Positions 9,311 through 48,358 of a stretch of 64,000 nucleotides of DNA are shown here, in pieces. Source of the stretch: Candidatus Sulfomarinibacteraceae bacterium (GTDB lineage: Bacteria > Acidobacteriota > Thermoanaerobaculia > Thermoanaerobaculales > Sulfomarinibacteraceae); assembly GCA_963823345.1 (NCBI GenBank), contig CAWGLE010000004.1:513166-577165 (forward strand), written 5' to 3'. The stretch's first letter is position 1, and each line of letters begins with the position of its first letter. The notes beneath the pieces are model-generated. The model was not told the origin of the DNA. It ran no database searches and worked only from the letters and a program-made list of their open reading frames with translations. Made by a program: the position numbers and the translations under genes.

Positions 9311-10135
9311 TTGGACGAATTGCATCTATCTTCTTTCCCGCCGCCGTGGTTAGATCGCGTGCATGACGACAAACCAGAAATCGAACGTCTCGGGCGACAT
9401 GGCGCGCGGGTGAAGGACCTCCGGCGGCGGGTCAAACACCGCCGCGGCGGCGAGGTGATCGTCGACGGGCGCCGGATCGCCCTGGATCTCGTGCGCTGGG
9501 AGGTGCCCATCCTCGAGCTCTACCTGACGCCGGAAGCTGCAGCCGCACCCGATACCGCGGCGTTGATCGAGGCCGCCGGTGCGGTCTACGAGGTGGAAGA
9601 CTCGGTGCTCGCGGACATCGCCCCGACCCGCTCACCGCAGGGTCTGTTGGCGGTCGCCGGGGAGCCGCGCCCGCACCGCTGGGCCGCCACCGGCGGAGTG
9701 GCCCTGTGGCTCCATCGCGTCCAGGACCCGGGCAACCTCGGGGCCATCGTGCGCTCCGCAGCCGGGCTCGGCGCCGCGGCGGTGCTGCTCTCCCCCGACT
9801 GCACCGACCCCTTCGGACCCGGCGCGGTGCGCGGCTCCTCGGGCGCGGTATTCCGCGTACCCATCGAGCGCGGGGTGCCGGCGATCACGGCCGTCGAGCG
9901 GGTGCGCCCGGTCGGCGGCGAGGTCTGGGCGGCGGGTTCGGACGGCCGGCCGGTGGCCGGTTGGCAGCCCGTCCGGCCCTGCGTCCTGATGCTCGGCGCC
10001 GAGGGCGTCGGTCTCTCCAACGAGGCCCGCGACCTCGCCGACGGCGAGCTCACCATCCCGCTGGCCAACGGGATCGAGTCCCTCAACGTCGCCGTCGCCG
10101 CCGGCATCCTCTTGCAGCATCTGCGGGAGCGCTGA
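9311..10135 (+). CDS. TrmH/SpoU-family RNA 2'-O-methyltransferase
   Basis: 274 aa; ...LHRVQDPGNLGAIVRSAAGLGAAAVLLS... and C-terminal IPLANGIESLNVAVAAGILL (SpoU knot motifs). The start is uncertain (TTG 9311 or GTG 9359). An 8-bp inverted repeat GCAATTCG-ttgga-CGAATTGC sits at 9303-9323. Confidence 0.8.
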   Translation: MDELHLSSFPPPWLDRVHDDKPEIERLGRHGARVKDLRRRVKHRRGGEVIVDGRRIALDLVRWEVPILELYLTPEAAAAPDTAALIEAAGAVYEVEDSVLADIAPTRSPQGLLAVAGEPRPHRWAATGGVALWLHRVQDPGNLGAIVRSAAGLGAAAVLLSPDCTDPFGPGAVRGSSGAVFRVPIERGVPAITAVERVRPVGGEVWAAGSDGRPVAGWQPVRPCVLMLGAEGVGLSNEARDLADGELTIPLANGIESLNVAVAAGILLQHLRER

Positions 10136-10137
10136 AC

Positions 10138-10161
10138 CACAGAGACACAGAGACACAGAGG
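10138..10161. repeat. Tandem 8-mer array (CACAGAGA)3
   Basis: cacagaga cacagaga cacagagg, starting 3 nt after the methyltransferase stop (10133-10135). Confidence 0.75.
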
Positions 10162-10320
10162 TCGTTCACCGGCGCGGCAGAACTGCCGGCGATCAGGGAT
10201 CGCTGCCGGTGAGCCGTCCGTCCGTTCCGGATGCGAGCATCCGTCCCGGCCGGCCGCCCCACCGGCGACGCGCCGACGGCGCGTAGGTCCTGCCTTCCGA
10301 GAAAAGGGACGAGCCAAACC

Positions 10321-10427
10321 GCATGGAATCGTAGGGTGGGCTTCAGCCCACCATCAGAGTCGTTCACATACGAGGCGGACTCGAGGGACCCGAGGCAACT
10401 CTGAAGGTGGGCCGAGGCCCACCCTAC
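10321..10427. repeat. REPIN type 1, copy 2
   Basis: gcatggaatcGTAGGGTGGGCttcagCCCACC...GGTGGGCCgaGGCCCACCCTAC; same 107-bp layout as 1471-1577. Confidence 0.8.
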
Positions 10428-10525
10428 CCATACAAGTAAGTGGGAAATCTGGGTCAATCCGGGTGATCTGTGGACAACCTTTGCGCCTTTGCGTCTCTGC
10501 GTTAAAAACGATGACGCTTCTGCAA

Positions 10526-11827
10526 TCAATCGCGGTTGATGAGACGGACCGAACCCGCGGGCCCGTCCGTGACGCGGCCGACGACGGCGGCGCCGGGGAG
10601 TCGGCGGACGAGGGCCTCGGCGTGCTCGGGCAGGACAGAGGCGAGCAGCCCCCCCGAAGTCTGAGGGTCGAGACAGAGGTCCACCCGGAGGTCGTCAGCG
10701 CCCCCCTCGACTTCGAGCACGGACGCCACGCTCTCCCGGTTCTTGCCCGCCCCCGCCGGCACCAGACCGGTGGCCGCGGCATCGAGCGCCCCCGGCAGCA
10801 ACGGCAGCGCGGAAAGATCGATCTCGACCGCAATCCCCGAGGCCTCGGCCATCTCGGCCGCGTGGCCGGCGAGCCCGAACCCGGTGACGTCGGTGACCGC
10901 GTGCGGCGCGAAATCGTGCAGCGCATCGGCCGCCTCGCGGTTGAGGGTCGCCATCCACCGCAGGGCGGTCGAGAGGTGGGTGGGGTCGACCATCTCGGCC
11001 TTGGCTGCGGTGGTGAGGACCCCGGTGCCGAGTGGTTTGGTGAGCACCAGTGCGTCGCCGGTCAGTGCGCCGGCGTTGCGCCAGATCCGGTCGGGGTGAA
11101 CGGTGCCGGTGACCGCGAGGCCGTACAGCAGCTCCTGTCCCTCCACCGTGTGGCCGCCGGCGAGCACGCCGCCCGCCTCCGCGAGGGCCGAGAGCCCGCC
11201 GCGCAGGATCTCGGTCAAGGCTTCGCGTCCGAGCTTGGCGAGCGGGTAGCTGACCAGATTCATGGCGGCCAGGACCGTGCCGCCCATGGCCCAGACATCG
11301 GACAGGGCGTTGACGGCGGCGATGCGGCCGAAGGTGTAGGGGTCGTCCACCATCGGCGGGAAGAAATCGGTGGTGTGGATGATGGCGATCTCCGGCGATA
11401 CCCGCACGACGCCCGCGTCGTCGGCGTACTCGATGCCGACCAGCAGGTCGTCGGACTCGAGCCGCGGCAGACCGCACAGCACCTTTTCGAGCAGGCCCTT
11501 CGAGAGCTTGGCGCCGCAGCCGCCGTAGGCCGAACCGGCGGTCAGCTTGACCTCACGCTCGGCAGACACCGCATCGAGGGCGCTCGGCACCCAGCCTCCA
11601 GCGCGCCGCCGGAACACAGCTTGCGGTTCGAGGCCGATCGTTCCCAGGATTCCGGCGAGCGCTTCGGCCTCGGCGGCGCGAACCTCGAGCACAACCCCGC
11701 ACTGCGAACTCACCGACCGCGGCGCCGGCACCGTATCCACGTCGAGTCCGGCATCGCGGGCCGCCTTTTCAGCGCGCATCACCCGCTGCACGGTGCCGAA
11801 CACCACGAGGAGATCCCGCGCGCTCAA
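10526..11827 (-). CDS. selD: Selenide,water dikinase (selenophosphate synthetase) with N-terminal DUF3343-like extension
   Basis: 433 aa. TTG start with GGAGGAG SD. Residues ~95-433 align to SelD (..SAYGGCGAKLSKG.., TTDFFPPMVDDPYTFGRIAAVNALSDVWAMGG, DVTGFGLAGH, DPQTSGGLL), Cys form. The first ~90 aa (LLVVFGTVQRVMRAEKAARDAGLDVDTVPAPRSVSSQCGVVLEV) look like the small putative Se/S-carrier DUF3343 fold. Confidence 0.9.
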   Translation of the reverse strand: MSARDLLVVFGTVQRVMRAEKAARDAGLDVDTVPAPRSVSSQCGVVLEVRAAEAEALAGILGTIGLEPQAVFRRRAGGWVPSALDAVSAEREVKLTAGSAYGGCGAKLSKGLLEKVLCGLPRLESDDLLVGIEYADDAGVVRVSPEIAIIHTTDFFPPMVDDPYTFGRIAAVNALSDVWAMGGTVLAAMNLVSYPLAKLGREALTEILRGGLSALAEAGGVLAGGHTVEGQELLYGLAVTGTVHPDRIWRNAGALTGDALVLTKPLGTGVLTTAAKAEMVDPTHLSTALRWMATLNREAADALHDFAPHAVTDVTGFGLAGHAAEMAEASGIAVEIDLSALPLLPGALDAAATGLVPAGAGKNRESVASVLEVEGGADDLRVDLCLDPQTSGGLLASVLPEHAEALVRRLPGAAVVGRVTDGPAGSVRLINRD

Positions 11828-11855
11828 CGCTCTCCTCCGAGATTTCCCGTCGGGC

Positions 11856-11948
11856 GGGCGGGGATAAACCCCGCCCCTACGCTGCTCCGGGACATATACC
11901 GTACCCGAAAGCCGTAGGGGAGGGGTTTATCCCCTCCCTTTCGTTTTC
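11856..11948. repeat. REPIN type 2, intergenic copy (GGGCGGGGATAAACCCCGCCCCTAC ... GTAGGGGAGGGGTTTATCCCCTCCC)
   Basis: Two inverted hairpins with inward CTAC/GTAG heads and a 43-nt spacer. It lies between selD and the desulfurase gene. The same family is embedded in paralogues A, B and D. Confidence 0.8.
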
Positions 11949-12044
11949 GGCAGACCGCGAACCCGCGCACGAACGGCATTCCTTGGCGGCTCAGTCCTTG
12001 CCCAACAGCCCATAGCCCATAGCTCATTGCACAGGGTCCAACAC

Positions 12045-13202
12045 TCACGACGCTGCAGACATTCTGACCGCCTGTACCAGCGCGTCCACATCCGCCTCGG
12101 TGTTGAACGGCCCGACGCCGACCCGGATCGTGCCTTCGGGATAGGTGCCGATCCGCCGGTGAGCGGCGGGCGCGCAGTGGAGACCGGCGCGGACGCAGAT
12201 CCCGTGCTCGCGATCGAGGCGGGCCGCGAGCTCGCCCGAATCGATGCCGTCGACGCGGAACGACAGCACCCCGGTGTGCGGCGCCTCCCCGTTCCACCCG
12301 TACAGCGTCACCCTGCCGGTTTCGGCGAGGCCCGGGGCCAACCGCCCGAGCAGCCGCCGGGCGTGATCCTGAACTGCCTGCACCGAATGCCGCCGCAGCC
12401 ACGAGCAGGCCGCTCCCAGACCGGCGGCGCCGACGCCGTTGGGGGTGCCCGCCTCGAGCCGGTCGGGCAGATGCTCGGGCATCTCCTCGCTCTCCGAGAG
12501 CGAACCCGTGCCGCCCCGCACCAGCGGTTCGACATCGAACCCCGGCGCCAGCAGCAGCACGCCGATCCCGGGCGGTCCCAGCAGCCCTTTGTGGCCGGAG
12601 CACACGAGGGCGGCGGCTCCGAGGGTCGAAAAGTCGATACGCAGACTGCCCGCGGTCTGGGCGGCGTCGACCACCACCGGGACCGGCGCGACCGCGGCGG
12701 CGATCTCGGCCACCGGCAGCACGTTGCCCGTGACGTTCGAGGCGTGATTCAGCACCACCAGGTCGGTGGGGGCCTCGGAGACCCGTGCCGCCACATCGCG
12801 CGCACCGGGCACACCGTGCGGTCCGGGCCCCTCCACCACCACGACCTCGACGTCTCGATCGGCCTCCAGCCACCGCAGCGGCCGCATGACGGCGTTGTGT
12901 TCGAGGGCCGTCACCACGACCCTGCCCCCGCGCCCGAGGCGGGAGCTGAGCACCGTGTTGAGCCAGAAGGTGGCGCCCGATCCGAACAGGGTCCGCTCCG
13001 GGTCCCCGCCGAGCAGGGCAGCGACCTCTTCCCGGGCGCCCTCGATGGCGCGCGACGCCGCCACCGTCAGGCGGTGGCCGCCGCGCCCCGGGTTGCCCGA
13101 CGCCTCGGCCAGAAAGCGCACCATGGCGCCGGCGACGCCGGGCGCCTTGGGGAAGGCGGTGGCGCCGTGGTCGAGGTAGATGGGGGTCCGGGAGTCGCTC
13201 AC
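12045..13202 (-). CDS. Class V aminotransferase: cysteine desulfurase / selenocysteine lyase family
   Basis: GTG 13202 overlaps the yedF stop (GTGA). The translation VSDSRTPIYLDHGATAFP...NHASNVTGNVLP...CSGHKGLLGPPGIGVL...RAGLHCAP... has the PLP Lys and catalytic Cys motifs. The ORF-track 663-aa version is a run-through into yedF in another frame. Confidence 0.85.
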   Translation of the reverse strand: MSDSRTPIYLDHGATAFPKAPGVAGAMVRFLAEASGNPGRGGHRLTVAASRAIEGAREEVAALLGGDPERTLFGSGATFWLNTVLSSRLGRGGRVVVTALEHNAVMRPLRWLEADRDVEVVVVEGPGPHGVPGARDVAARVSEAPTDLVVLNHASNVTGNVLPVAEIAAAVAPVPVVVDAAQTAGSLRIDFSTLGAAALVCSGHKGLLGPPGIGVLLLAPGFDVEPLVRGGTGSLSESEEMPEHLPDRLEAGTPNGVGAAGLGAACSWLRRHSVQAVQDHARRLLGRLAPGLAETGRVTLYGWNGEAPHTGVLSFRVDGIDSGELAARLDREHGICVRAGLHCAPAAHRRIGTYPEGTIRVGVGPFNTEADVDALVQAVRMSAAS

Positions 13203-13819
13203 GGCCGCACGATCGACCCTGCTTCGGCGAGACGGGAGGCGATCTCGAGCATGTCGGTGACACGCCCCACACGCAGCCGGTCGGCGAGCTCGAAGAAGTT
13301 GAGGCAGGTGCCGCAGGCGATGATCTCGACTCCCGCCGCCGCGAGGGCCGCGAGGTCGTCGAGCAGCAGCGAGCCCTCGCAGCACAGCTTGACGCCGTCG
13401 TTGTAGAACAGGATCGCGTCGGGCGTGCGGTCGAGCTGGCTCTGGGTCTTGAGGAACGACCGCATGAGGAGGGCGCCGAGCTCGTCGTTGCCCGTGCCCA
13501 TGGTGGCGGCGGTGATCTGCACCACCCGCGGACCGGAAGAGGAGGGGGTTGCGGGGACCTCGCACGCCAACAGCTCTTCTTCGCCGGGGCGAGCACCGGC
13601 GGCGTCGGCGCCGGCGGTGATCTTCACCACGAAGCTCCCGTCGCCGCCCGGTTCGGTCTGCGTCCCGGCGCCGCGCGAGGTCGCGAACCGGGTCACATTC
13701 GAGCGGCTGAGGTCGTCCGCCACCCGCAGGATGATCTCGCGCTCGCCGGCATCCAGCAGGTCCCGCAGCTTTAAAACCGGACCCGGGCAGGCAAGATCGC
13801 GAACGTCGAGCTCTTTCAT
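13199..13819 (-). CDS. yedF: Selenium metabolism protein YedF-like (TusA/SirA domain + DsrE-like domain)
   Basis: ATG 13819 follows GGGAGG. MKELDVRDLACPGPVLKLRD.. carries the CPxP TusA motif. The C-terminal half ..VVQITAATMGTGNDELGALLMRSFL...GVEIIACGTCLNFF.. is DsrE-like. Confidence 0.8.
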   Translation of the reverse strand: MKELDVRDLACPGPVLKLRDLLDAGEREIILRVADDLSRSNVTRFATSRGAGTQTEPGGDGSFVVKITAGADAAGARPGEEELLACEVPATPSSSGPRVVQITAATMGTGNDELGALLMRSFLKTQSQLDRTPDAILFYNDGVKLCCEGSLLLDDLAALAAAGVEIIACGTCLNFFELADRLRVGRVTDMLEIASRLAEAGSIVRP

Positions 13820-13956
13820 CGAACCTCCCGTCCGGTAAGTGTAAACCCTCGCCGCGTGCTTTTTCTTCTCCCTTTTTCCTGGGTCGCACCGCAAGGCGCG
13901 ACCCAGGAAAAAGGGTGGGGTATGATGAAAGGCAGACCAAACAACTGGAGGTGACC

Positions 13957-15081
13957 ATGCTCGGTCGAGGCGTCCTGAGTCGCTTGCACACTCTGACGCA
14001 GGAGGAGGGTCTGACCCTCACTCTGTATGTGGACATCGATCAGAACAAACAAGCCAACCGGAAACGAGGCTTCGTGGTCCAGGCCGACGCCCTGCTCAAG
14101 AGCCTCAAGGCCGAGCACGGAGCGGACCGCAAGCTCGCCGACTCGGCCCGTCGCGCGCTCGATCTGGTCAAGAAGGCCAAACCGAACGGCCTGTGCGCCC
14201 TCGTGGTGGTTCACCTGCCGTCGCGAACTGCCGAGGTCCACCAGCTCAGGGTGCCGTTGGTGGCCCAGGCCTATTGGCGGAAGGGCGCCTTCCTGCGGCC
14301 GGTCGTCGAGGCGATGGACGAACACGAGCGCTACGGCGTCGTCCTCACCAGCACCCAGCGCGCCCGCCTCTTCACCGTTTCGATGGGCGAGATCGCCGAG
14401 CACGACGACCTCTTCTCCGACACCGGCCCGCGCACCCGGGCCCTCGGTTCGGACCAGTGGCGCTCCCAGAAACGGCACGAACGACGGCACGAGGAGGAGG
14501 TCACACTCCACGCCAAAAAGGTGATCGACGCCCTCCGCGATCTGTCGCTGCGCATCCCCTTCGACCGCCTCATCATCGCCGGCACCGCCAAGGCGACCGC
14601 CCAGCTCGAACGACTGCTGCCTCGCCGCCTCAAGGGCAAGCTGGTCCGCACCATCACGATGCCCATGACCGCGACCCCGAGGGAGGTGCTCGAAGGCATC
14701 CTCAAGGTCCAGGAGCGGATGGAGCGGGACGAGGAGTCCTCGCTGGTCGAGGCGGTGCTGGCCGAGCTCCACGACCGCGGTAAGGCGGTGGCCGGCTTCG
14801 CCGCCGTCCTCGACGCCGTCAACCAGGGCCGGGTCTGGACTCTCGCCTACAACAAGGGCTTCAAGACCACAGCCGGCGAGTGCGGCGACTGCAAGGCCTA
14901 CTCGCCGCACGCCCGCGGGCCCTGCGTCTACTGCGGCGGCGAGGTCAAACCGCTCTCCCAGCCCATCGACCGCCTCGGCCAGTCCGTCCTCGAGATGGGA
15001 GGCCGCGTCGAGGTCGTCGACGGCCCGGCGCGCACCGCGCTGGCCAAGAAAGGCGACATCGCGGCGTTGCTGCGGTACTGA
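13957..15081 (+). CDS. eRF1/Pelota-like (bacterial baeRF1-type) protein with inserted zinc ribbon
   Basis: ATG 13957 follows GGAGG. N-terminus ..LTLTLYVDIDQN..; central loop ..TRALGSDQWRSQKRHERRHEEE..; CGDCKAYSPHARGPCVYCGG (CxxC..CxxC); C-terminal ..GDIAALLRY, which is like eRF1 domain 3. Assignment is from memory of family signatures. Confidence 0.55.
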   Translation: MLGRGVLSRLHTLTQEEGLTLTLYVDIDQNKQANRKRGFVVQADALLKSLKAEHGADRKLADSARRALDLVKKAKPNGLCALVVVHLPSRTAEVHQLRVPLVAQAYWRKGAFLRPVVEAMDEHERYGVVLTSTQRARLFTVSMGEIAEHDDLFSDTGPRTRALGSDQWRSQKRHERRHEEEVTLHAKKVIDALRDLSLRIPFDRLIIAGTAKATAQLERLLPRRLKGKLVRTITMPMTATPREVLEGILKVQERMERDEESSLVEAVLAELHDRGKAVAGFAAVLDAVNQGRVWTLAYNKGFKTTAGECGDCKAYSPHARGPCVYCGGEVKPLSQPIDRLGQSVLEMGGRVEVVDGPARTALAKKGDIAALLRY

Positions 15082-21227: not shown

Positions 21228-23898
21228 AATTCCGGAGTGCCCGCCAAGGCGGCCCGCCGCTCATTCACCACTCCGGCACCTCGGCCCATCCCGGGAACGG
21301 ACCGACCTCGATCTTCCAGCCGGTAGAGGATTCCTCGTCCCGGACGACGCGGAGGTTTGTGAGGGTCTTGAGCTTGGCGATCAGCTCGTCGTGCGGCAGG
21401 GTGTGGAGCGGCGGCTTCGAGAGGTCGGGCATGGGCCAGACTCGAGAGGTATCGTCGATGCCCGACGACGACGAGCCAGGCGTTGTCGGGGGAGACGAAC
21501 TTGTAGCCGATCGCGCCCTCTGGCCGAGGAGGAGGTGAGGTGTTGTCCGTCCGATCCGGCCGACCTGGATCGTGCCGTCCGATTCGACCCGCGACCCAGA
21601 TCGTCGCCGTCGGGGCTGATCGAGGGATTGCCCGAAATAAGAAAATCAAGGTCTCGAGCGCCGTCGGTCCTCACGTCGAAGAGCTTTGTCGGCTCGGCAC
21701 CGGTTCATACCGCGAATCGGTGTCCCAGCAGGAGGGCCCTCGGCGGTCGGCGGTCATCGACATCGACGAGTGCCGCCGCTGGGGACCCGATGACTTCTTC
21801 GTACGTCCCGGCGTCGAGGTCCCATCGCAGCAGGCCGTTCGCACCGCTGTGTAAAGGCTGCTTTCGTCCACAAATGCGAGATGGACCGCCGCGTACCCCT
21901 CGTAGCCCTCCGGGTCCACGGGCTGTTCGAAGACCCGCACCTCGTCCGTGTCGAGGTCCCACACCCGAAGCGTCGCCTGGCCTTCCGATTGGGCGCTCGC
22001 CGCCGCCACCAGCCGCCCGCTCGGCGAGAAGCCGCCGGCGACCAGCGCTCGCTGGCAGGAAAACCGAAGAGATTCCGGGCCTCTCCACGGTCACCGAGAG
22101 CAGGAAGCTGCTGCGGCCGTACTCAGCGCCAGCACGTACCGAACGGTCGGGTCGACGGTCATTCATGTGTCCGACAGCTCCGATTCCGGTGGCAACATCA
22201 GGTCGACGATGTCGTCTGGGTGTTTCCGGGCACCGGCCAGAGCCGCACCCGGGTTGCCGGGTGATTCACCGAACAGTCGATGGCGACAAGGAAACGACCG
22301 TCACCGGTGAAGCCCTGCTCTACCAGCCCTTGATGACGATTGGGAGGGGGTCTCGGAGCGGCCACAACCCGTTCACTTTGTCGACGTCCGTCGCGCAATC
22401 CAGTCTCCGTGGGGTTGAAGCGCATGGCGAAGCTGGTGGTCTGGCGGAGCTGCAACGGTTGGCGTGGCGGATCGCCGCGAGGTCCCACAATGTCACGGGG
22501 TACCCGGATAACGAGTATTACGATGGCCCGACGCCCCGCGGGTCCGGGACGAGGCTATCGCTCGGACGCCCTCCGGCCGCCGCATTCGTTTACGGGGCAA
22601 CCAGGAGCCGACCGTCCAGGGACCACAGGATGATCTCGCCGCTGCTGTCGTCGCGAGAAGAATTCGCTCCGTCGCGCCCCAGATTTCGACGAACAACACC
22701 GTCTGACGAGTGGCGGCCGAGCAGCGTGTCGGACACGTCTTCGATGACCGGCAGAGGGCGGGAATATACGCCGTTCCCCTTGGAGTAGAGCCATGCATTC
22801 CCCCGCGGATCGAAGATGCTCGTGGACTGGTGCCGACGGCGCGAAAGTCGACCGTGCCGAGGTCTTCGGCCTCGCCGTCCGGCAGCTTCCACCGGACGAG
22901 CTTGAGCGGCCACGGCTCGCCGGCTGGGGGTGAGGATCGCGCGCCGACCTCAGCGAGGAGGTGCTGCTCGCCCACCTGCCACCACGCTCGGCCGCCGAGC
23001 TCGATCGTGGCGACGAGATCGCCCCGCGGCATCGACCACACCCGCACGCGGGTCTCGCTGTTGTGGCCGGTGACGAGAAAATCGTCACGGCTCCAACCAC
23101 ATTGGATCGGATTGTTGGCAGAAACCGCATGACCGCCGAGGACGATCGGACGGCCTCCGGCCTTCTCGTGGACCAGCACGTCCTGATTGACGATTCCCCG
23201 TCCCGCGAGCCACTGCCCGTCGGGGCTGAAGCAGGAGCCCGCGATCTGTCCCCGGGTGAAATGGCGCGGGTCGAGCACCCTGACCGGCGGTCCCGCCCAC
23301 AACGCCCGCACCGCAAACAGGCGCGCTTCACGCGAGTCTGCGAGCTCGAGGCTCGAGGTCGCGTAGGCGAGCGCCTCGGTGGGGTCCTTCTCGATCTGCA
23401 CCTGGGCCAGGGCGAGCAGCTTCGAGGCCTCGGCGCGGCGGGTCTCGAGGACGCTGCGGCGCCAGAAGGTGCCGACAAACGGCTGCCGATGACCAGGGCC
23501 AGCGCGATTGCTGCCGCTACCGCGATCCGGCGCCGCCGTCTCCGCCGCGTCGCGAGGGAGGTCATGGCGGCAGCGAAGGCCTCCTCGAGCTCGGTGAGGC
23601 CGCCCGGGTAGCGCTCCCGCCATACGGCAAACTCGCGGTAGGCGGAGCCGGTCCACAGCATGTCGTCGGTGCGGCCGTGCTCGTCCCAGGTCTTGCGCCG
23701 CCTGCCGCAGCTGGTCGCGCAGCTGGGCGGCGTCGGCGTCCTGGGTCTGCCAGCGCACGAGGCGCGGCCAGTTGGCGAGCAGCGACTCGTGGATGATTTC
23801 GACGCGGCGGGTGGGTTCCTGTTCGTCTTCGTGGATCTCGTACGAGGTCAGGAGCCGGGCGTCGATGAGTTCTCGCAGCACTTCTTCTGCGGCAGAGC

Positions 23899-23964
23899 GG
23901 GAGGGGATAAACCCCTCCCCTACGGCTTTCCTTGCGTTCGTAGGGGCGGGGTTTATCCCCGCCC
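23899..23964. repeat. REPIN type 2 embedded in paralogue A coding region
   Basis: GGGAGGGGATAAACCCCTCCCCTAC-ggctttccttgcgttc-GTAGGGGCGGGGTTTATCCCCGCCC. On the minus strand it is translated as ..AGINPAPTNARKAVGEGFIPS... Confidence 0.8.
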
Positions 23965-24993
23965 TGCGATGGTCCCCGTCAAAAATTGATAGCAACTCGT
24001 TCCATTCTCGGACCGCCCGGGTGCCTTCGGCGGTGACGAGGTTGCGGAAGAGCTCGCGGACGATGGGAATTCGTTCGGCACCGATGCGGTCGATGGTGGC
24101 TTCGGCGTGTTGGGCCAGCGCGCCGGCGACGCCGCCGATCTCCTGGTACGCTTCGCGGGTGAGGAGACCGCTCTCCTTGTCGCGCCGCTCCCACAGGCGC
24201 GCAGCCGCAAACGCCAGCAACGGCAGGGCGCCGCGCTCGCCCTCGACCTCGGCCAGCATCTCGTCCACCAACTCGTCGTCCTCGAAGCGGTAGCCGCACT
24301 GCAGCGGCGGGCTGGGACAGGGCGCGTCGGAGAGCGGCGCCGGTCGGTGGGTCGAGCAGCGTGAGGTCGGCGAAGACCGGCGCGAGGGCTTCGTGGTCGC
24401 GACACCGATCAGGAAGTCGTCCCGCATGCGACAGCAGCACGAAGCACGTCGGCCTCGAGCGCGAACGCGGCGAGCAGTGTCCGCGAACCTCTGCTGTATC
24501 GTCGGCGGAGTTCTGAGTGAACAGCTCCTCGAACTGATCGACGATCACCAGAGTGCTCGGTCGTCGCTTGCCGCCACCGCGCGACGACGTCGACCGCCAC
24601 GTCCGGTCGTCGCGGCCGCGAGCACGAGTCCATCGCCTCGGCGTCACCGGCCATCGCGGCGCCAACGCCCGTCCGCAGCGACGCTGACGGGTCGTTGCCG
24701 GGTGTGCAGATCGGACGGTGCCCCAGCCGGGCCGTGCGGTCGCAATCAGGCCTGCACGAAGGAACGAAGTCTTGCCTGCGCCCGGAGGCCCGACCAACCC
24801 GAGCATCCTCGGCGGCCCCTCGAGCTTGCGCCACATCTGCTCGACCTCGGCCTCGCGGCCGAAGAAGTACTCGGCATCAGCTTCGGTGAAGGATGCGAGA
24901 CCGGGGTAGGGGTGGAGGTCGTCGGCGCCCTCGACTCGGAGGGTCACGTCCTCGAGGGCGCGGGTGAGAGTGTGGGCGGAGTTGTATCGGTCT

Positions 24994-37430: not shown

Positions 37431-40400
37431 TCACCACGTCGGCACCGTTTCCCACCCCGGGAAGGGATCATGGGTGAGCTTCCACCCAGTGGTGGACTCT
37501 TCGTCGCGGACGACGCGGAGGTTGGTGAGGGTTTTGAGCTTGGCGATGAGATCCTCACGCGGCAGGGTGTGGAGCGGCGGCTTCGAGAGGTCGGGCATAG
37601 GCCAGAGGCGGATCTCGGTTCCCGACGACGAGGCGATCCAACGATCCAGAGGGTCGACAGATACGGCGTAGATCTCGTCCGGATTTCCAAGCAGAAGATG
37701 AGGTTCCTCGCCAGTTATGGGTCCGACGCGGATCACGCCGTTCGAGTCACCCGTTACAGCGACCGTGCCCGATGGATCTATCGCGACCGCTGTCACGCGG
37801 TCCCCATGGGACTTGAGCGTATTTGTCAATCCGGTCTCGAGGTCGAGCGACACGGCTTTACCTAAAAGGGCCAAGGACGCCCTCTCGTTCCCAACTTCGG
37901 ACAGAAGCGCGTGGGTACTGTCCACGCCAACCGCAAACTTCTCCACAGGTTTTTCGAACAGGGCTTCCGTGACACCGGTTTCAAAATCCCAGCCGAACAA
38001 ACCCGATGAGTGCGAATACAGAACGAGCCCCCCCTCCGTGAATTGGAGGAAAGGAGTGGCATTGGTTTTGGCCAATTCGAGCGCTGCTATCTCTTCGGAC
38101 GAGGAAAGGTCCCACACTCGTACAACGGTTTCCTCATAATTCCCTTTCAAACCGGTGGCTGCAGCGAATCGGCCGTCGGGGCTGAACGCCGCTCCCCATA
38201 CAATTTTGGCGACGCCTGGAAGATCAACAGGTTTCTCATTGCTGAGTGAGAGCAGTTTTGTGCCGGTGGCGTGGGTCCCGAGAAGGAGGTGTTCCCCGTC
38301 AGGGGAAGCAGCGAGACCGTACGGATAAGCCCCCGCCTCGAACACAGTCCGGGCCGCCGGCACGTTATCGCCCTCCAAATCCCACACGCGAACGGCGCCG
38401 GTTGAGTCGACACCGCTCGTCGCGAGCCACCTGCCCTCGGGTCCGAATACCAAATTCATGGCTCGCTCCTCGTACCGATTGATCACCGCTGGGTAGGGTC
38501 AGGTCACTGGCCAGAGAGTCAGGCCGTTTGTAAACGAGGTGGCCAACCACCCGCCATTCGGGTGAACTCTCACGCGTCTCGGGGTGCTGGCGTCACCTCG
38601 TTGCAAGATTGTGGGTTCGGCGTCAGCCGGCGCCCGCAACCACCACAGCCGGGTTTTCGGGTCTGGATTGAGGATGCTGACGATCTGACCTTCAACTGGA
38701 TTGAGCGTCCAGCCCGCGGTTCCGCTGCTCTTCCCAAGATCGATGTGGCGAAGCAAGGTCGGTTCGCGGTCCCGAAGAGACCAGATCCACGATTCGACCA
38801 TGTCGTTTTTCCGTGTGATAACCTCGAACAACGATCCGTCGCCACTGATACTGAGTCGAATGTCGCCGCGTGGCCCCCCTTTGATCTCCCGTGGCGGCGA
38901 CTCCCCATCCAGGTCTCGCAGACGAATCCGCCCGTCTTCGGAGAGTGAAACGACGAATCGACCCTGGGGGTCGCATTGGAGGCGCACGACTGGAGTATCG
39001 AGAAAATCGAGATGTCGCGGCTCTGAGAGTTCGTGGTCTCCGACCTCGATCACGTAGACATTTTGACCGGACCCAACGGCAAACCATTTTCCTTTCGGGG
39101 CGCTTTGGCAAAGAACTGTCGAACGCGAGTCAAATGGGAGAGCGCCGAGGCGTTCGGAGCTGCCGTCGAATCCTAAGGCATCGATGAAGAAACGGTCGTC
39201 CTCTATCGACATCAGCAATACGCGGGCTCGCCCCAGGTCGAAATAGATTCTCCGAGTATTTTCTGGAATCCCGGATCGGCCGGTGGAAAGCAGTTTTTTT
39301 TCAGGAGCCGACCAGAGCGCCCATAGTTCGGCGTTGCCCCAGGGACTTGTCGCGAAAACTCCTGATTCCGTATCCATCGTCAGACCAACCCAGTCATCGT
39401 GCACGTCCTCTAACAGTTCATCGGTTCCTTCAGCACCGATAACATGCAGTTGGTAAGGGGCCGCATCCGTTGCCTGCACGAGCCACTGACCGTCAGGGGT
39501 GAACTCGATTTCCCACGACGGAATTTCGTTGACAACAAACGCTGTCGGGCCTTTCCAGAGCGCCTTGAGTGCGAGGAGCCGAGCCTCTGAACTGTCCGCC
39601 AGTTCGAGACTGGCCGTCGCGTATGCCACTGCGGCTGACGGATACGACTCGAGTTCTACCTGCGCCTGGGAAAGAAGGGTGGCGGCCTCGGCGCGGAGAG
39701 TTTCGCGGACGCTTCGCTGCCAGAATGTGCCGACGACCGCGAGGCCGGCGAGGAGGACAGCGAACCCTGCGCTCACCGCTATTCGACGCCTGCGCCGACG
39801 TCGCCCGGCGAGGGAGGTCATGGCGTTCCCGAAATCTCTTTCGATCTCGGTCAGGCCACCGGGATAGCTTTCGCGCCACACGGCGAACTCTCGGTAAGCC
39901 GAACCGGTCCAAAGCAGATCGTCAGATCGGTCGTGCTCGCTCCACGTCTTCGCTGCCTGCCGGAGTTGATCGCGGAGCTGGGCCGCATCGGCGTCCTGGG
40001 TCTGCCAGCGCACCAGCCGCGGCCAGTTGGCGAGCAGAGATTCGTGGATGATTTCTACTCTACGGGTTGGTTCGTGTTCGTCTTCGTGGATTTCGTATGA
40101 GGTCAGGAGTCGGGCGTCGATGAGTTCGCGAAGGACCTCTTCTGCGGCAGTGCGGGAGGGGATGAACCCCTCCCCTGCGGCTTTCCCTGTCTTCGTAGGG
40201 GCGGGGTTTATCCCCGCCCTGGGGTAGCTCCCACCGAAAATCGAAAGGAGTTCATTCCATTCACGGACGGCGCGGGTGCCTTCGGCGGTGATGAGGTTTC
40301 GGAAGAGTTCTCTGACGATGGGGATCCTCTCGACACCGGTGCGATCGATTGTTGCCTCGGCGTGCTGCGCCAATGCCCCGCCGACGCCGCCGATGTCGTG

Positions 40401-42045
40401 GTACGCCTTTCGGGTGAGAAGCCCGTTCTCCTTGTCGCGTCGTTCCCAAAGCCTCGCCGCCGCAAAGGCAAGCAGCGGGAGTGCTCCGCGTTCGCCTTCG
40501 ACCTCGGCGAGCATCTCGTCGACCAGATCGTCGTCCTCGAAGCGGTAACCGCACTGCAGAGCAGGTTGGGTCAGGGCGCGCCGAAGCGGTGCACCCTCCG
40601 GTGGGCCGAGCATCGTCATGTCGGCGAGCGCCGGACGCAGTGGCTTGTTCTGGTGGCAGCGGAAGAGATAGTCATCGCGCATGCTCAGCAGCACGACGAT
40701 GTCGGCCTCGAGAACGAGCGCGTTCAAGAGTTCTGCGATCGTGCTCTGGATCTCTGGCGGGTTGAGGGTGAACAGCTCCTCGAACTGATCGATGATCAAT
40801 AGTGCGTGGTCATGCTTGCGACGCCAACGAGCGACAAGGTCCACCGCGACGTCCAGCTCGTGAAAGCGTAGCAAGAGTTTTACGCCATCAGAATCTCCCG
40901 CCGTCTCGGTTGCGAAGGCTCCGGCAAGGGCGTTGACGGGTGCGTTGCCGGGGGTGCATCGAACAATTCCCCAGCCTGGCGGAGCGTGCGGCGCCAGCCC
41001 CGCCCCCAAGAAGGACGTTTTTCCGGCTCCCGAAGGGCCCGCGATTGCGAGCATTCGCGGCGGCCCTTCGAGCTTGCGCCACATCTGCTCGACCTCGGCC
41101 TCGCGGCCGAAGAAGTACTCGGCGTCTGATTCGGTGAAGGAGGCGAGGCCGGGGTAGGGGTGGAGGTCGTCGGCGCCTTCGACTCTGAGGGTGACGTCTT
41201 CGAGCGCTCTGGTCAGGGTGTGGGCGGAGTTGTAGCGGCCCTCGCGGTCTCTTTTTACCGCCTGTTTAATGACTGGCGCCCATGGCGTGTCGGGGACCTT
41301 TGCGGGCTCCGAGCGCACGCCTTCCCAGACGCTCTGCCGGGAGTCAAAACTCTTGATGCCTTCGGGACTCACCATCTCGGCCAACACCACGCCCGCTGCG
41401 TAAACGTCGGCCCGCGCATCGAGGGTCTGGCCTGCAGCCTGCTCCGGCGACATGTAGGCGGGTGTGCCGGCGACAGTCCCGCCGCCCTCGGTCTCCTGGC
41501 GGGCGAGGCCGAAGTCCATCACCACCACCCGCCCGGCACGGGTGAGCATGATGTTTTCGGGTTTGATGTCGCGGTGGATGAGGCCAGCCTTGTGGATCGC
41601 TTCGAGGCCGGCGAGGAACTGCGAGGCGATGTCCTGCGCTTCCTTGAGCTCGAGCGGACCGCGCTCCTGGAGCACGCCGAGAAGCGTCGCGCCGTCGACG
41701 TACTCCATCGACACCAGCTCGCGGCCCTCGACTTCGATCAGATCGAAGATCCGGCAGACGTTGGGCGAGACCACCTCACGAGCGGCGCGGACTTCCTGCC
41801 GCAACAGTTCCAACCGCCTCTCGGACTTGAAGAACTCGGGCCGCAATGCCTTCAGCGCCACCTCGACCCGCAGCTTCGAGGTCGAAGGCGTGCCACACCT
41901 CGCCCATCCCGCCGCGGCCGAGCATCTCCAGCACCTGATAGCGCTCACCGAGCACCTGACCGGGGGCGAAGCCCTTCATCCCCTCCGGCATGTCGAGGGT
42001 TTTGCCCTCGTCCTCGGTGCCTGTGGGGAGGTCGCGGTCAGTCAT
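37431..42045 (-). pseudogene. Paralogue D of kinase - STAND NTPase - TM - WD40 protein (least damaged: one +1 frameshift, one in-frame TGA)
   Basis: ATG 42045 (MTDRDLPTGTEDEGKTLDMPEG..). An extra C at 41877 splits the kinase between the Gly loop and VALK. A 1149-aa ORF (38499-41948) follows, then TGA 38499-38501 where B and C have Arg. The same frame continues for 356 codons to ..GWETVPTW* (37431). Confidence 0.6.
40154..40219. repeat. REPIN type 2 embedded in paralogue D coding region
   Basis: GGGAGGGGATGAACCCCTCCCCTGC-ggctttccctgtcttc-GTAGGGGCGGGGTTTATCCCCGCCC, translated ..AGINPAPTKTGKAAGEGFIPS.. within the intact 1149-aa ORF. Confidence 0.8.
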
Positions 42046-48025: not shown

Positions 48026-48358
48026 ATTTCGGATTTCGGATTTCGGATTTCGGATTTTCCACCCATCCACCCCACACGTGTCCTCCCGTGCTATCCAGAG
48101 CCCCAATGGGGCAGGGTCAGCGTTCGATGACGACGCGGATTCCTGCAGTGCGCAGCGATGCGATTGCGGTCCACTCGCCAGCAGCGATACTGAAGGTGGG
48201 CCAAGGCCCACCCTACTTCGGACCAACAGATTGAGCGGACTGGTAGGGTGGGCTTCAGCCCACCTTCAGAGTCTCCTCGGGCCGGGTTTGGATGACATTC
48301 AGCTGGAGGAGGGCGGCAGGGTTTCCGAAATCCGAAATTCGAAATCCGAAATTCGAAA
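48024..48358. repeat. Second inverted pair of 7-mer arrays enclosing ~265 bp that contains a REPIN
   Basis: (GGATTTC)5 at 48024-48058 overlaps the uvrB stop. (TCCGAAA/TTCGAAA)5 at 48324-48358 ends 8 nt from the antiporter stop. Confidence 0.8.
48195..48264. repeat. REPIN type 1, copy 3 (heads inward)
   Basis: GGTGGGCCaaGGCCCACCCTAC -26 nt- GTAGGGTGGGCttcagCCCACC. Confidence 0.75.

Follow-up and report, generated by a model that had tools for sequence, protein, structure and literature searches.

A DUF3343 (Se_S_carrier) domain fused to the N-terminus of SelD, encoded next to yedF and a class-V desulfurase gene in Thermoanaerobaculia (Acidobacteriota)

In a 64,000-nucleotide stretch of a genome assembled for Candidatus Sulfomarinibacteraceae bacterium (hereafter the window; contig CAWGLE010000004.1 of GenBank assembly GCA_963823345.1), the gene for selenophosphate synthetase, selD, codes for a single protein of 433 amino acids (aa) in which a domain of the DUF3343 family precedes SelD itself. 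The fused gene is co-transcribed or translationally coupled with yedF and with a gene for a selenocysteine-lyase-like cysteine desulfurase and, as far as sequences can tell, a formerly separate small DUF3343 protein has become the N-terminal domain of SelD in a lineage of the Thermoanaerobaculia (Acidobacteriota). The explanation that best accounts for the whole, and which we regard as probable, is that of a three-gene operon for selenium mobilisation, in which the fused DUF3343 domain acts as a selenium carrier feeding the catalytic cysteine of SelD, Cys104. Selenium is most likely passed to Cys104 by Cys43 of the tethered domain; we infer the chemistry, the direction of the transfer and the place of YedF. 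The genes and sites concerned are the following (positions in the window):

10526-11827, minus strand: fused selD gene, 433 aa
11564-11827, minus strand: N-terminal extension (residues 1-88), Se_S_carrier (DUF3343) domain plus a short linker (PF11823)
10526-11563, minus strand: SelD module (residues 89-433 and stop codon), selenide, water dikinase, AIRS and AIRS_C domains (TIGR00476)
11699-11701, minus strand: codon for Cys43, the family-invariant carrier cysteine, in PAPRSVSSQCG (from alignments)
11516-11518, minus strand: codon for Cys104, the SelD catalytic cysteine, in GGCGAK (Escherichia coli Cys17 in the 3U0O alignment)
11507-11509, minus strand: codon for Lys107 (E. coli Lys20 in the 3U0O alignment; the E. 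coli motif is GCGCK)
11825-11838, minus strand: Shine-Dalgarno-like GGAGGAG (11832-11838) and TTG start codon (11825-11827) of the fused gene, read from the sequence
12045-13202, minus strand: class-V, pyridoxal phosphate (PLP)-dependent cysteine desulfurase/selenocysteine-lyase-like gene, 385 aa
13199-13202, minus strand: GTGA, the yedF stop codon TGA overlapping the desulfurase start codon GTG
13199-13819, minus strand: yedF, 206 aa, for a protein of selenium metabolism (N-terminal domain TusA-like, C-terminal domain DsrE-like)

Both modules of the fused protein are recognised by curated profiles. Residues 6-72 (11612-11812) match the Pfam profile PF11823, Se_S_carrier, over profile positions 2-68 of 69, with an E-value of 1.3e-14 and a score of 53.8 bits that lies above the gathering cut-off of 25. 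Se_S_carrier is the family formerly named DUF3343, so that the likeness to DUF3343 that a first-pass annotation of this DNA had seen in an extension of about 90 residues is borne out by a profile search. By alignment to E. coli SelD (PDB 3U0O), residue 89 of the window protein pairs with residue 2 of the E. coli enzyme; the extension thus amounts to 88 residues on a complete, canonical SelD, and the peptide quoted in that annotation and the SSQCG and GGCGAK motifs are all present. The SelD module scores above the cut-offs of both TIGR00476 (368.8 bits; cut-off 125) and NF002098 (324.6 bits; cut-off 299), aligns with 3U0O with an E-value of 3.2e-72 and keeps the DDA, TTDFF, NALSDxxAMGG, GGH and TDVTGFGL motifs. 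It also shows the PurM-like fold of SelD (Foldseek against 3U0O, E-value 3.3e-34, TM-score 0.88 normalised to the target). Cys43 and Cys104 are 61 residues apart. Typical members of the Se_S_carrier family are free-standing proteins of about 80-100 aa, whereas the domain described here lies inside a 433-aa protein with no intervening stop codon, and the public annotation of an identical sequence (P0001, 100% identity) likewise gives a product of 433 aa.

The residues that define the family are found in the extension. We used alignments of 41, 112 and 130 sequences, the first two of which hold 40 and 111 standalone DUF3343 proteins, respectively. The positions A19, E20, P34, P36, R37, C43 and G44, invariant or nearly so across the family, are all present, as are F10 and S41, also counted among the invariant residues, and Cys43 is invariant in all three alignments. 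Identity to the nearest standalone members is 25-42%. Judged by these residues, the SelD extension is a true Se_S_carrier/DUF3343 domain. AlphaFold2 predicts for it a ferredoxin-like beta-alpha-beta-beta-alpha-beta-beta fold with a mean predicted local distance difference test score (pLDDT) of 86 (range 80-93), made of a strand (residues 6-9), a helix (13-25), a strand (30-34), the loop bearing Cys43, a strand (45-49), a helix (51-64) and a hairpin (70-82). In the model of the full-length protein the bodies of the carrier domain and of SelD are confident, and residues 90-123, the linker and the Gly-rich loop, have a pLDDT below 50; the segment that joins the regions of Cys43 and Cys104 is thus predicted to be disordered. 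The N-terminal loop of SelD is mobile in the solved SelD structures, with which the low pLDDT of residues 90-123 agrees. Among solved structures, neither sequence nor fold searches returned any that resembled the carrier domain beyond generic PII-like or ACT-like proteins (E-values of at least 0.015, TM-scores below 0.5). The nearest of these, the PII proteins GlnK and GlnZ and the ACT domains of aspartokinases, could suggest that the N-terminal domain is a regulatory module that binds a small ligand and tunes SelD, rather than a carrier. We think this very unlikely: the fold matches are weak (E-values of 0.015-0.08) and reflect a very common ferredoxin-like fold, and the strictly invariant Cys-Gly pair and the PxPR motif suggest cysteine chemistry over ligand sensing.

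The fusion is conserved. All of the 120 best database homologues have the precomputed architecture PF11823+AIRS+AIRS_C (74-100% identical to the window protein; 73-100% in a MAFFT alignment). When genomes were scanned, with each species represented by one, 61 species-level genomes proved to code for the fused N-terminus. The query of the genome scan was a single peptide pattern, VSS[EQ]CG[VM]VL, specific to this DUF3343 subfamily, and the scan is therefore blind to fusions built from other DUF3343 subtypes. Nearly all of the 61 genomes are metagenome-assembled and labelled Thermoanaerobaculia, Thermoanaerobaculales, Ca. Sulfomarinibacteraceae, Holophagae or Acidobacteriota; a few are labelled Deltaproteobacteria, Enterobacterales, Methylomirabilota or Chondromyces, and these off-lineage labels are taken to be binning or naming noise. 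The motif PAPRxVSS[EQ]CG occurs in 58 of the 61 loci, and in the other three (L033, L046 and L058) the gene is split between frames. Of the 54 loci that have both motifs in one frame, 53 separate GGCGAK from the carrier CG motif by 56-59 residues; the remaining seven loci comprise three with a frameshift within the gene, two with a changed SelD motif and two that end at a contig edge. For 51 intact genes (1136 pairs, Nei-Gojobori method) the carrier domain has a median omega of 0.28 and the SelD module one of 0.24. An omega of about 0.28 indicates that the carrier extension is constrained coding sequence under purifying selection.

These data also bear on whether the fusion is an annotation artefact, with SelD starting internally, for example at an in-frame GTG at codon 80, and the upstream part being a separate gene or untranslated. 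Such a reading could appeal to the GGAGG that stands four nucleotides upstream of this GTG, and to the fact that homology to SelD begins only at residue 89. Against it, in the 54 loci that have both motifs the reading frame runs from one to the other with no stop codon, so that translation from the upstream start must continue into SelD, and the three frame-broken loci are assemblies with visible frameshifts within the gene. Moreover, the upstream part, in the same frame and under purifying selection, has its own conserved start: in each of the 58 genes scored, a start codon lies close to the position that pairs with residue 1 of the window protein, mostly 0-7 codons upstream, with a Shine-Dalgarno-like motif in 38 of the 58. 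An internal in-frame start preceded by such a motif, between codons 66 and 100, was found in only six of the 58 genes, that of the window included, and at varying positions. An internal start, which the first-pass annotation had named as a way in which its view could fail, is therefore not the conserved start, and we hold an artefact to be extremely improbable.

The fusion is likely of single origin. A phmmer search with the N-terminal domain against 1.84 billion cluster representatives gave 218 matches; among the best 150 of these, the only ones fused to SelD belong to this same family (53-74% identity), and several of the short top matches are fragments or frameshifted copies of it. Two long matches considered as independent fusions, P0163 and P0246, were rejected as neither has a Se_S_carrier match in Pfam. 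Apparent triple fusions at L029 and L047 were likewise set aside, the stop-free stretch upstream of the carrier having a non-coding composition, with G+C at third codon positions (GC3) below that at first positions (GC1). A further candidate, P0234, is a fusion of a desulfurase with DUF3343:

L062 4545-6504 (ENA ERZ25039483, contig_50465): P0234, the C-terminal end of a class-V aminotransferase plus Se_S_carrier, after a split TusA/DsrE yedF-like pair

P0234 is a singleton among fragmented neighbouring genes, the split yedF included, and is probably an artefact of an assembly indel.

Some fused homologues depart from the common form of the SelD module. At L059 (8001-9290 of CAYZVO010000003.1) the protein has GGGSAAK in place of GGCGAK, with Ser at the position of the SelD catalytic cysteine, and retains the carrier cysteine and the other SelD motifs examined; this locus has the desulfurase gene and lacks yedF. 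The 399-aa homologue P0132 has a degenerate SelD body, in which the Gly-rich loop is absent and TDVTGFG is lost, with the carrier motif intact. On the basis of L059 and P0132 one may propose that the tethered cysteine is an obligatory, intramolecular entry point for selenium, such that SelD would never meet free selenide, and that in some relatives it replaces the cysteine of the catalytic loop. We consider this improbable; if true, it would amount to a previously unrecognised two-domain build of the SelD active site. A milder change, GGCGSK for GGCGAK, is seen in the homologue at L057.

The six-frame list of open reading frames (ORFs) and the profile searches place yedF, the desulfurase gene and selD on the minus strand, co-directional and tightly coupled, as the first-pass annotation had read them, and the overlap it reported between the first two genes is found as GTGA at 13199-13202. 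The yedF product matches TIGR03527, an equivalog model, over residues 4-206 with 178.2 bits (cut-off 110). Its TusA-like part is also recognised by the Pfam TusA profile (E-value 8.6e-09) and has the CPGP cysteine motif at residues 11-14, within the peptide LACPGPV; the gene starts with ATG, preceded by GGGAGG. The desulfurase matches Pfam Aminotran_5 over its full length (E-value 2.9e-72). Its best subfamily is TIGR01977 (EF2568 type), with a score, 353.2 bits, just under the cut-off of 377, and the selenocysteine lyase model for SclA (NF040779) gave 251.5 bits against a cut-off of 525; with both scores below cut-off, the protein can be claimed only as a class-V desulfurase, EF2568-like. Its translation contains SGHKG and GLHCAP, which we take to hold the PLP lysine and the catalytic cysteine, respectively.

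The order yedF-desulfurase-selD is found at 44 of the 61 loci, or 45 if L058, where the genes are split by frameshifts, is counted, and most of the loci without it have too little upstream DNA. The junction of yedF and the desulfurase gene is overlapping or abutting in almost all of the related loci. The stop codon of the desulfurase gene overlaps or abuts the start of the fused selD in several loci (gap of -10 to +5 nucleotides); the median spacer is about 100 nucleotides, and that of the window is 217 nucleotides. In five loci (L013, L027, L034, L036 and L046) the gap extends to 1.1-3.1 kb. The 1.1-kb gap of L013 holds an ORF of about 290 aa (1633-2553) whose family is found in seven related loci and which, with its GVDLGGTK motif, presumably resembles a sugar kinase or regulator of the ROK family.

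Under the reading that we prefer, the desulfurase would take selenium from selenocysteine, or from another reduced source, as an enzyme-bound perselenide, from which Cys43 of the tethered carrier would accept it, with YedF possibly acting before or alongside. The carrier would then swing the selenium onto Cys104 in the mobile N-terminal loop of SelD, and the ATP-dependent synthesis of selenophosphate would follow. Tethering would raise the local concentration of the donor and keep toxic, oxidation-prone selenide bound to protein. As the fusion is found throughout the lineage, DUF3343 can be argued to be the module nearest to SelD and to act directly with it; conserved in 61 genomes and under selection, the fusion is good genetic evidence, and a fair argument, for DUF3343 working directly with SelD, as the first-pass annotation had claimed. 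That annotation had also set out an order of transfer from the lyase to YedF, to DUF3343 and to SelD. The fusion upholds the last step by placing DUF3343 next to SelD, and is silent on the position of YedF.

Several observations weigh against this reading. The carriage of selenium or sulfur by DUF3343 is hypothetical for the whole family, many members of which come from genomes that lack selD and in which Lin and co-authors found no subfamily specific for selenium (Lin et al., 2015; PMC5322559). The standalone DUF3343 genes of Desulfuromonadales that we examined adjoin ffh, not selD, in line with a family that is not specific for selenium. The window ORFs that were scanned with Pfam include no selA, selB, selU, yedE or yqeB/C. 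A search for tRNA-Sec, which covered the window and 38 related loci, gave no match, and no other gene family recurs beside the operon in the 61 related loci. The fold search with the carrier domain returned only generic ferredoxin-like folds (PII, ACT), with E-values above 0.01, and no match to TusA or to other known persulfide carriers, and the connection of Cys43 to Cys104 falls in the low-confidence linker of the predicted model. Finally, the GTG at codon 80 of the window gene (11588-11603, with GGAGG 4 nucleotides ahead) lies inside the linker, and an additional, minor, unfused SelD isoform could be made from it in this genome.

The ffh-linked genes, at L063 (5001-5258, Desulfuromonas sp. 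TF) and L064 (5001-5267), lie directly upstream of ffh (SRP54), between dciA and the rpsP-rimM-trmD-rplS cluster, with no selD nearby; at one of the two loci the DUF3343 gene is followed by a gene for a 193-aa protein with a TusA domain.

Part of the same evidence would suit a different role for the tethered cysteine, namely to protect or resolve, forming or reducing a mixed S-Se or S-S bond with Cys104 and keeping the catalytic loop reduced or releasing dead-end adducts, or to handle sulfur. That DUF3343 also occurs where selD is missing, and forms no subfamily specific for selenium (PMC5322559), is compatible with such a role, as are the standalone homologues in contexts unrelated to selenium, and the very name of the lineage, Ca. 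Sulfomarinibacteraceae, is taken from sulfur metabolism; the constant spacing of 56-59 residues suits a resolving cysteine as well as a donor. The partner genes, however, point to selenium supply upstream of SelD, one coding for an EF2568-like lyase and the other for a YedF of the TIGR03527 type, found only in selD-positive species (Haft and Self, 2008; PMC2276186). Canonical SelD enzymes, moreover, function with no carrier domain. We regard a protective or sulfur-handling role as unlikely and retain, as the better account, a carrier that delivers selenium to SelD.

The company that these genes keep is known from other genomes. That YedF, class-V desulfurases and DUF3343 co-occur with SelD, which the first-pass annotation had given as established, is backed by three studies (PMC2276186; PMC5322559; bioRxiv 10.1101/2022.04.13.486033). 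DUF3343 was proposed as a selenium/sulfur chaperone from its gene neighbourhood, its conserved Cys was noted, and its genes were found to adjoin those for YedF and the selenocysteine lyase, with no fusion reported (Lin et al., 2015; PMC5322559). Standalone members such as Shel_25430 of Slackia heliotrinireducens (PMC5322559) have the same domain, the same invariant residues, Cys-Gly included, and the same gene company as here (YedF, a desulfurase resembling selenocysteine lyase, and SelD), but are free proteins with genes of their own, whereas here the domain is covalently attached to the N-terminus of SelD. In the study by Kayrouz and co-authors, the five genes with the most frequent overlaps with selD include yedF and duf3343 (bioRxiv 10.1101/2022.04.13.486033); since the overlap of duf3343 with selD is common, the loss of a single stop codon separates the fusion from a known arrangement. 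In Enterococcus faecalis, consecutive locus tags belong to a YedF-type protein (EF_2566), SelD (EF_2567) and a selenocysteine lyase (EF_2568), the first of which is said to be encoded beside selD (Haft and Self, 2008; PMC2276186). The same three families are thus clustered there, and were read as acting before selenophosphate synthesis. The gene order differs, however, from that of the window, the E. faecalis SelD is not reported to carry a DUF3343 module, and the E. faecalis cluster is linked to genes for selenium-dependent molybdenum hydroxylases, of which none was found in the scanned part of the window.

Fusions of SelD to other partners have been catalogued. Mariotti and co-authors describe fusions to NADH-dehydrogenase-like, NifS-like and methyltransferase partners, as well as an extension in Plasmodium, and state that other single-species SelD extensions are not reported; DUF3343 is not mentioned (Mariotti et al., 2015; PMC4561486, Supplement S2). 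In the fusions to these three partners, as in the present one, the extra module stands on the N-terminal side of a Cys-type SelD. NifS-like proteins have been proposed as selenium donors to SelD, and the NifS-like-SelD fusions of Geobacter sp. FRC-32, Caldithrix abyssi and Naegleria further resemble the present one in that this module is a presumed selenium-supply partner (PMC4561486). The published fusions differ in that their partner is an Aminotran_5 domain, a pyridine-nucleotide oxidoreductase or a methyltransferase, whereas here it is a small carrier and the desulfurase is encoded by a separate gene. We found no mention of the DUF3343-SelD architecture in the literature searched, later selenium reviews included; it is visible in automatic Pfam annotation and undescribed in that literature, and stands as a fourth type of SelD fusion beside the published catalogue.

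How selenium reaches selenophosphate synthetase without passing through free, toxic selenide is a long-standing question, and the fusion is the strongest genetic argument so far for DUF3343 acting at the SelD step. In the persulfide relay IscS-TusA-TusBCD-TusE-MnmA, a desulfurase loads the cysteine of a small carrier, and the sulfur is passed on to a consuming enzyme. The principle proposed here is the same, and YedF combines a TusA-like with a DsrE-like domain, but the DUF3343 carrier is not TusA-like by sequence or fold search, the presumed cargo is selenium, and the final carrier and the acceptor enzyme form one protein. With Cys43 and Cys104 in one polypeptide, the fusion offers a natural system in which transfer can be probed by point mutants. 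It is a variant of a known selenium-supply system, and leaves the known outline of selenium metabolism unchanged.

The flanks of the operon are syntenic across the lineage and are not related to selenium. On the yedF side lies a divergent gene of baeRF family 10 (bacterial eRF1-like; 13915-15081, plus strand, E-value 3.7e-31), with a C-terminal Cys-rich motif, CGDC...CVYCGG; a homologue of this gene recurs at 29 of the 61 loci. Past the selD end of the operon, a convergent gene for a SpoU methylase is followed by those for an aminotransferase and phosphoenolpyruvate carboxykinase. Across the selenium operon and its neighbour, the SpoU methylase gene (9500-13500), the G+C content is 70-76%, compared with 61-66% in the flanking genes; the synteny with many relatives argues against a recent transfer of this region. 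No Rfam element was matched in the window.

Two unrelated families of inverted repeats lie close to selD:

11856-11938, no strand: REPIN-like inverted doublet lying between the desulfurase gene and selD; its hairpin unit is GC-rich and 22-26 nucleotides long
10331-10427, no strand: second, unrelated REPIN-like doublet, of the GTAGGGTGGGCTTCAGCCCACC family, about 100 nucleotides 3' of the selD stop codon

The first, which the first-pass annotation had already recognised as a REPIN between the two genes, has arms of 26 nucleotides (11856-11881 and 11913-11938) that are 92% complementary, and the spacer that holds it folds with a z-score of -3.9. Its 22-nucleotide core occurs eight times in the window, against 0.01 copies expected by chance, and the eight form four inverted doublets, the arrangement of a REPIN, though two of the four lie inside ORFs and not in intergenic DNA. 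Among 49 related loci, a single one has the REPIN motif here, which is thus a recent, lineage-specific insertion that is incidental to the selenium system. No RAYT transposase was found among the window ORFs scanned, which covered part of the window. The second doublet lies in the convergent intergenic region between selD and the SpoU methylase gene. The GTAGGGTGGGCTTCAGCCCACC family has five matches in the window, with none expected, arranged as two inverted doublets and one single copy (1481-1502, 10331-10427 and 48195-48264).

The two copies of the first REPIN inside ORFs, at 40154-40219 (ORF 38499-41948) and 23899-23964 (ORF 22493-24427), are in minus-strand genes for Ser/Thr-kinase-nSTAND1 proteins. 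The 66-nucleotide copy at 40154-40219 is read through in frame (...YPRAGINPAPTKTGKAAGEGFIPSR...) and coincides with about 35 residues that are extra relative to the nSTAND1 profile. More generally, the window between about 22500 and 42000 is occupied by repeated large genes in which a Ser/Thr protein kinase is joined with an nSTAND1 NTPase and with WD40 repeats; several of these genes look split or truncated, and the GC3 of the block is below that of the surrounding housekeeping genes.

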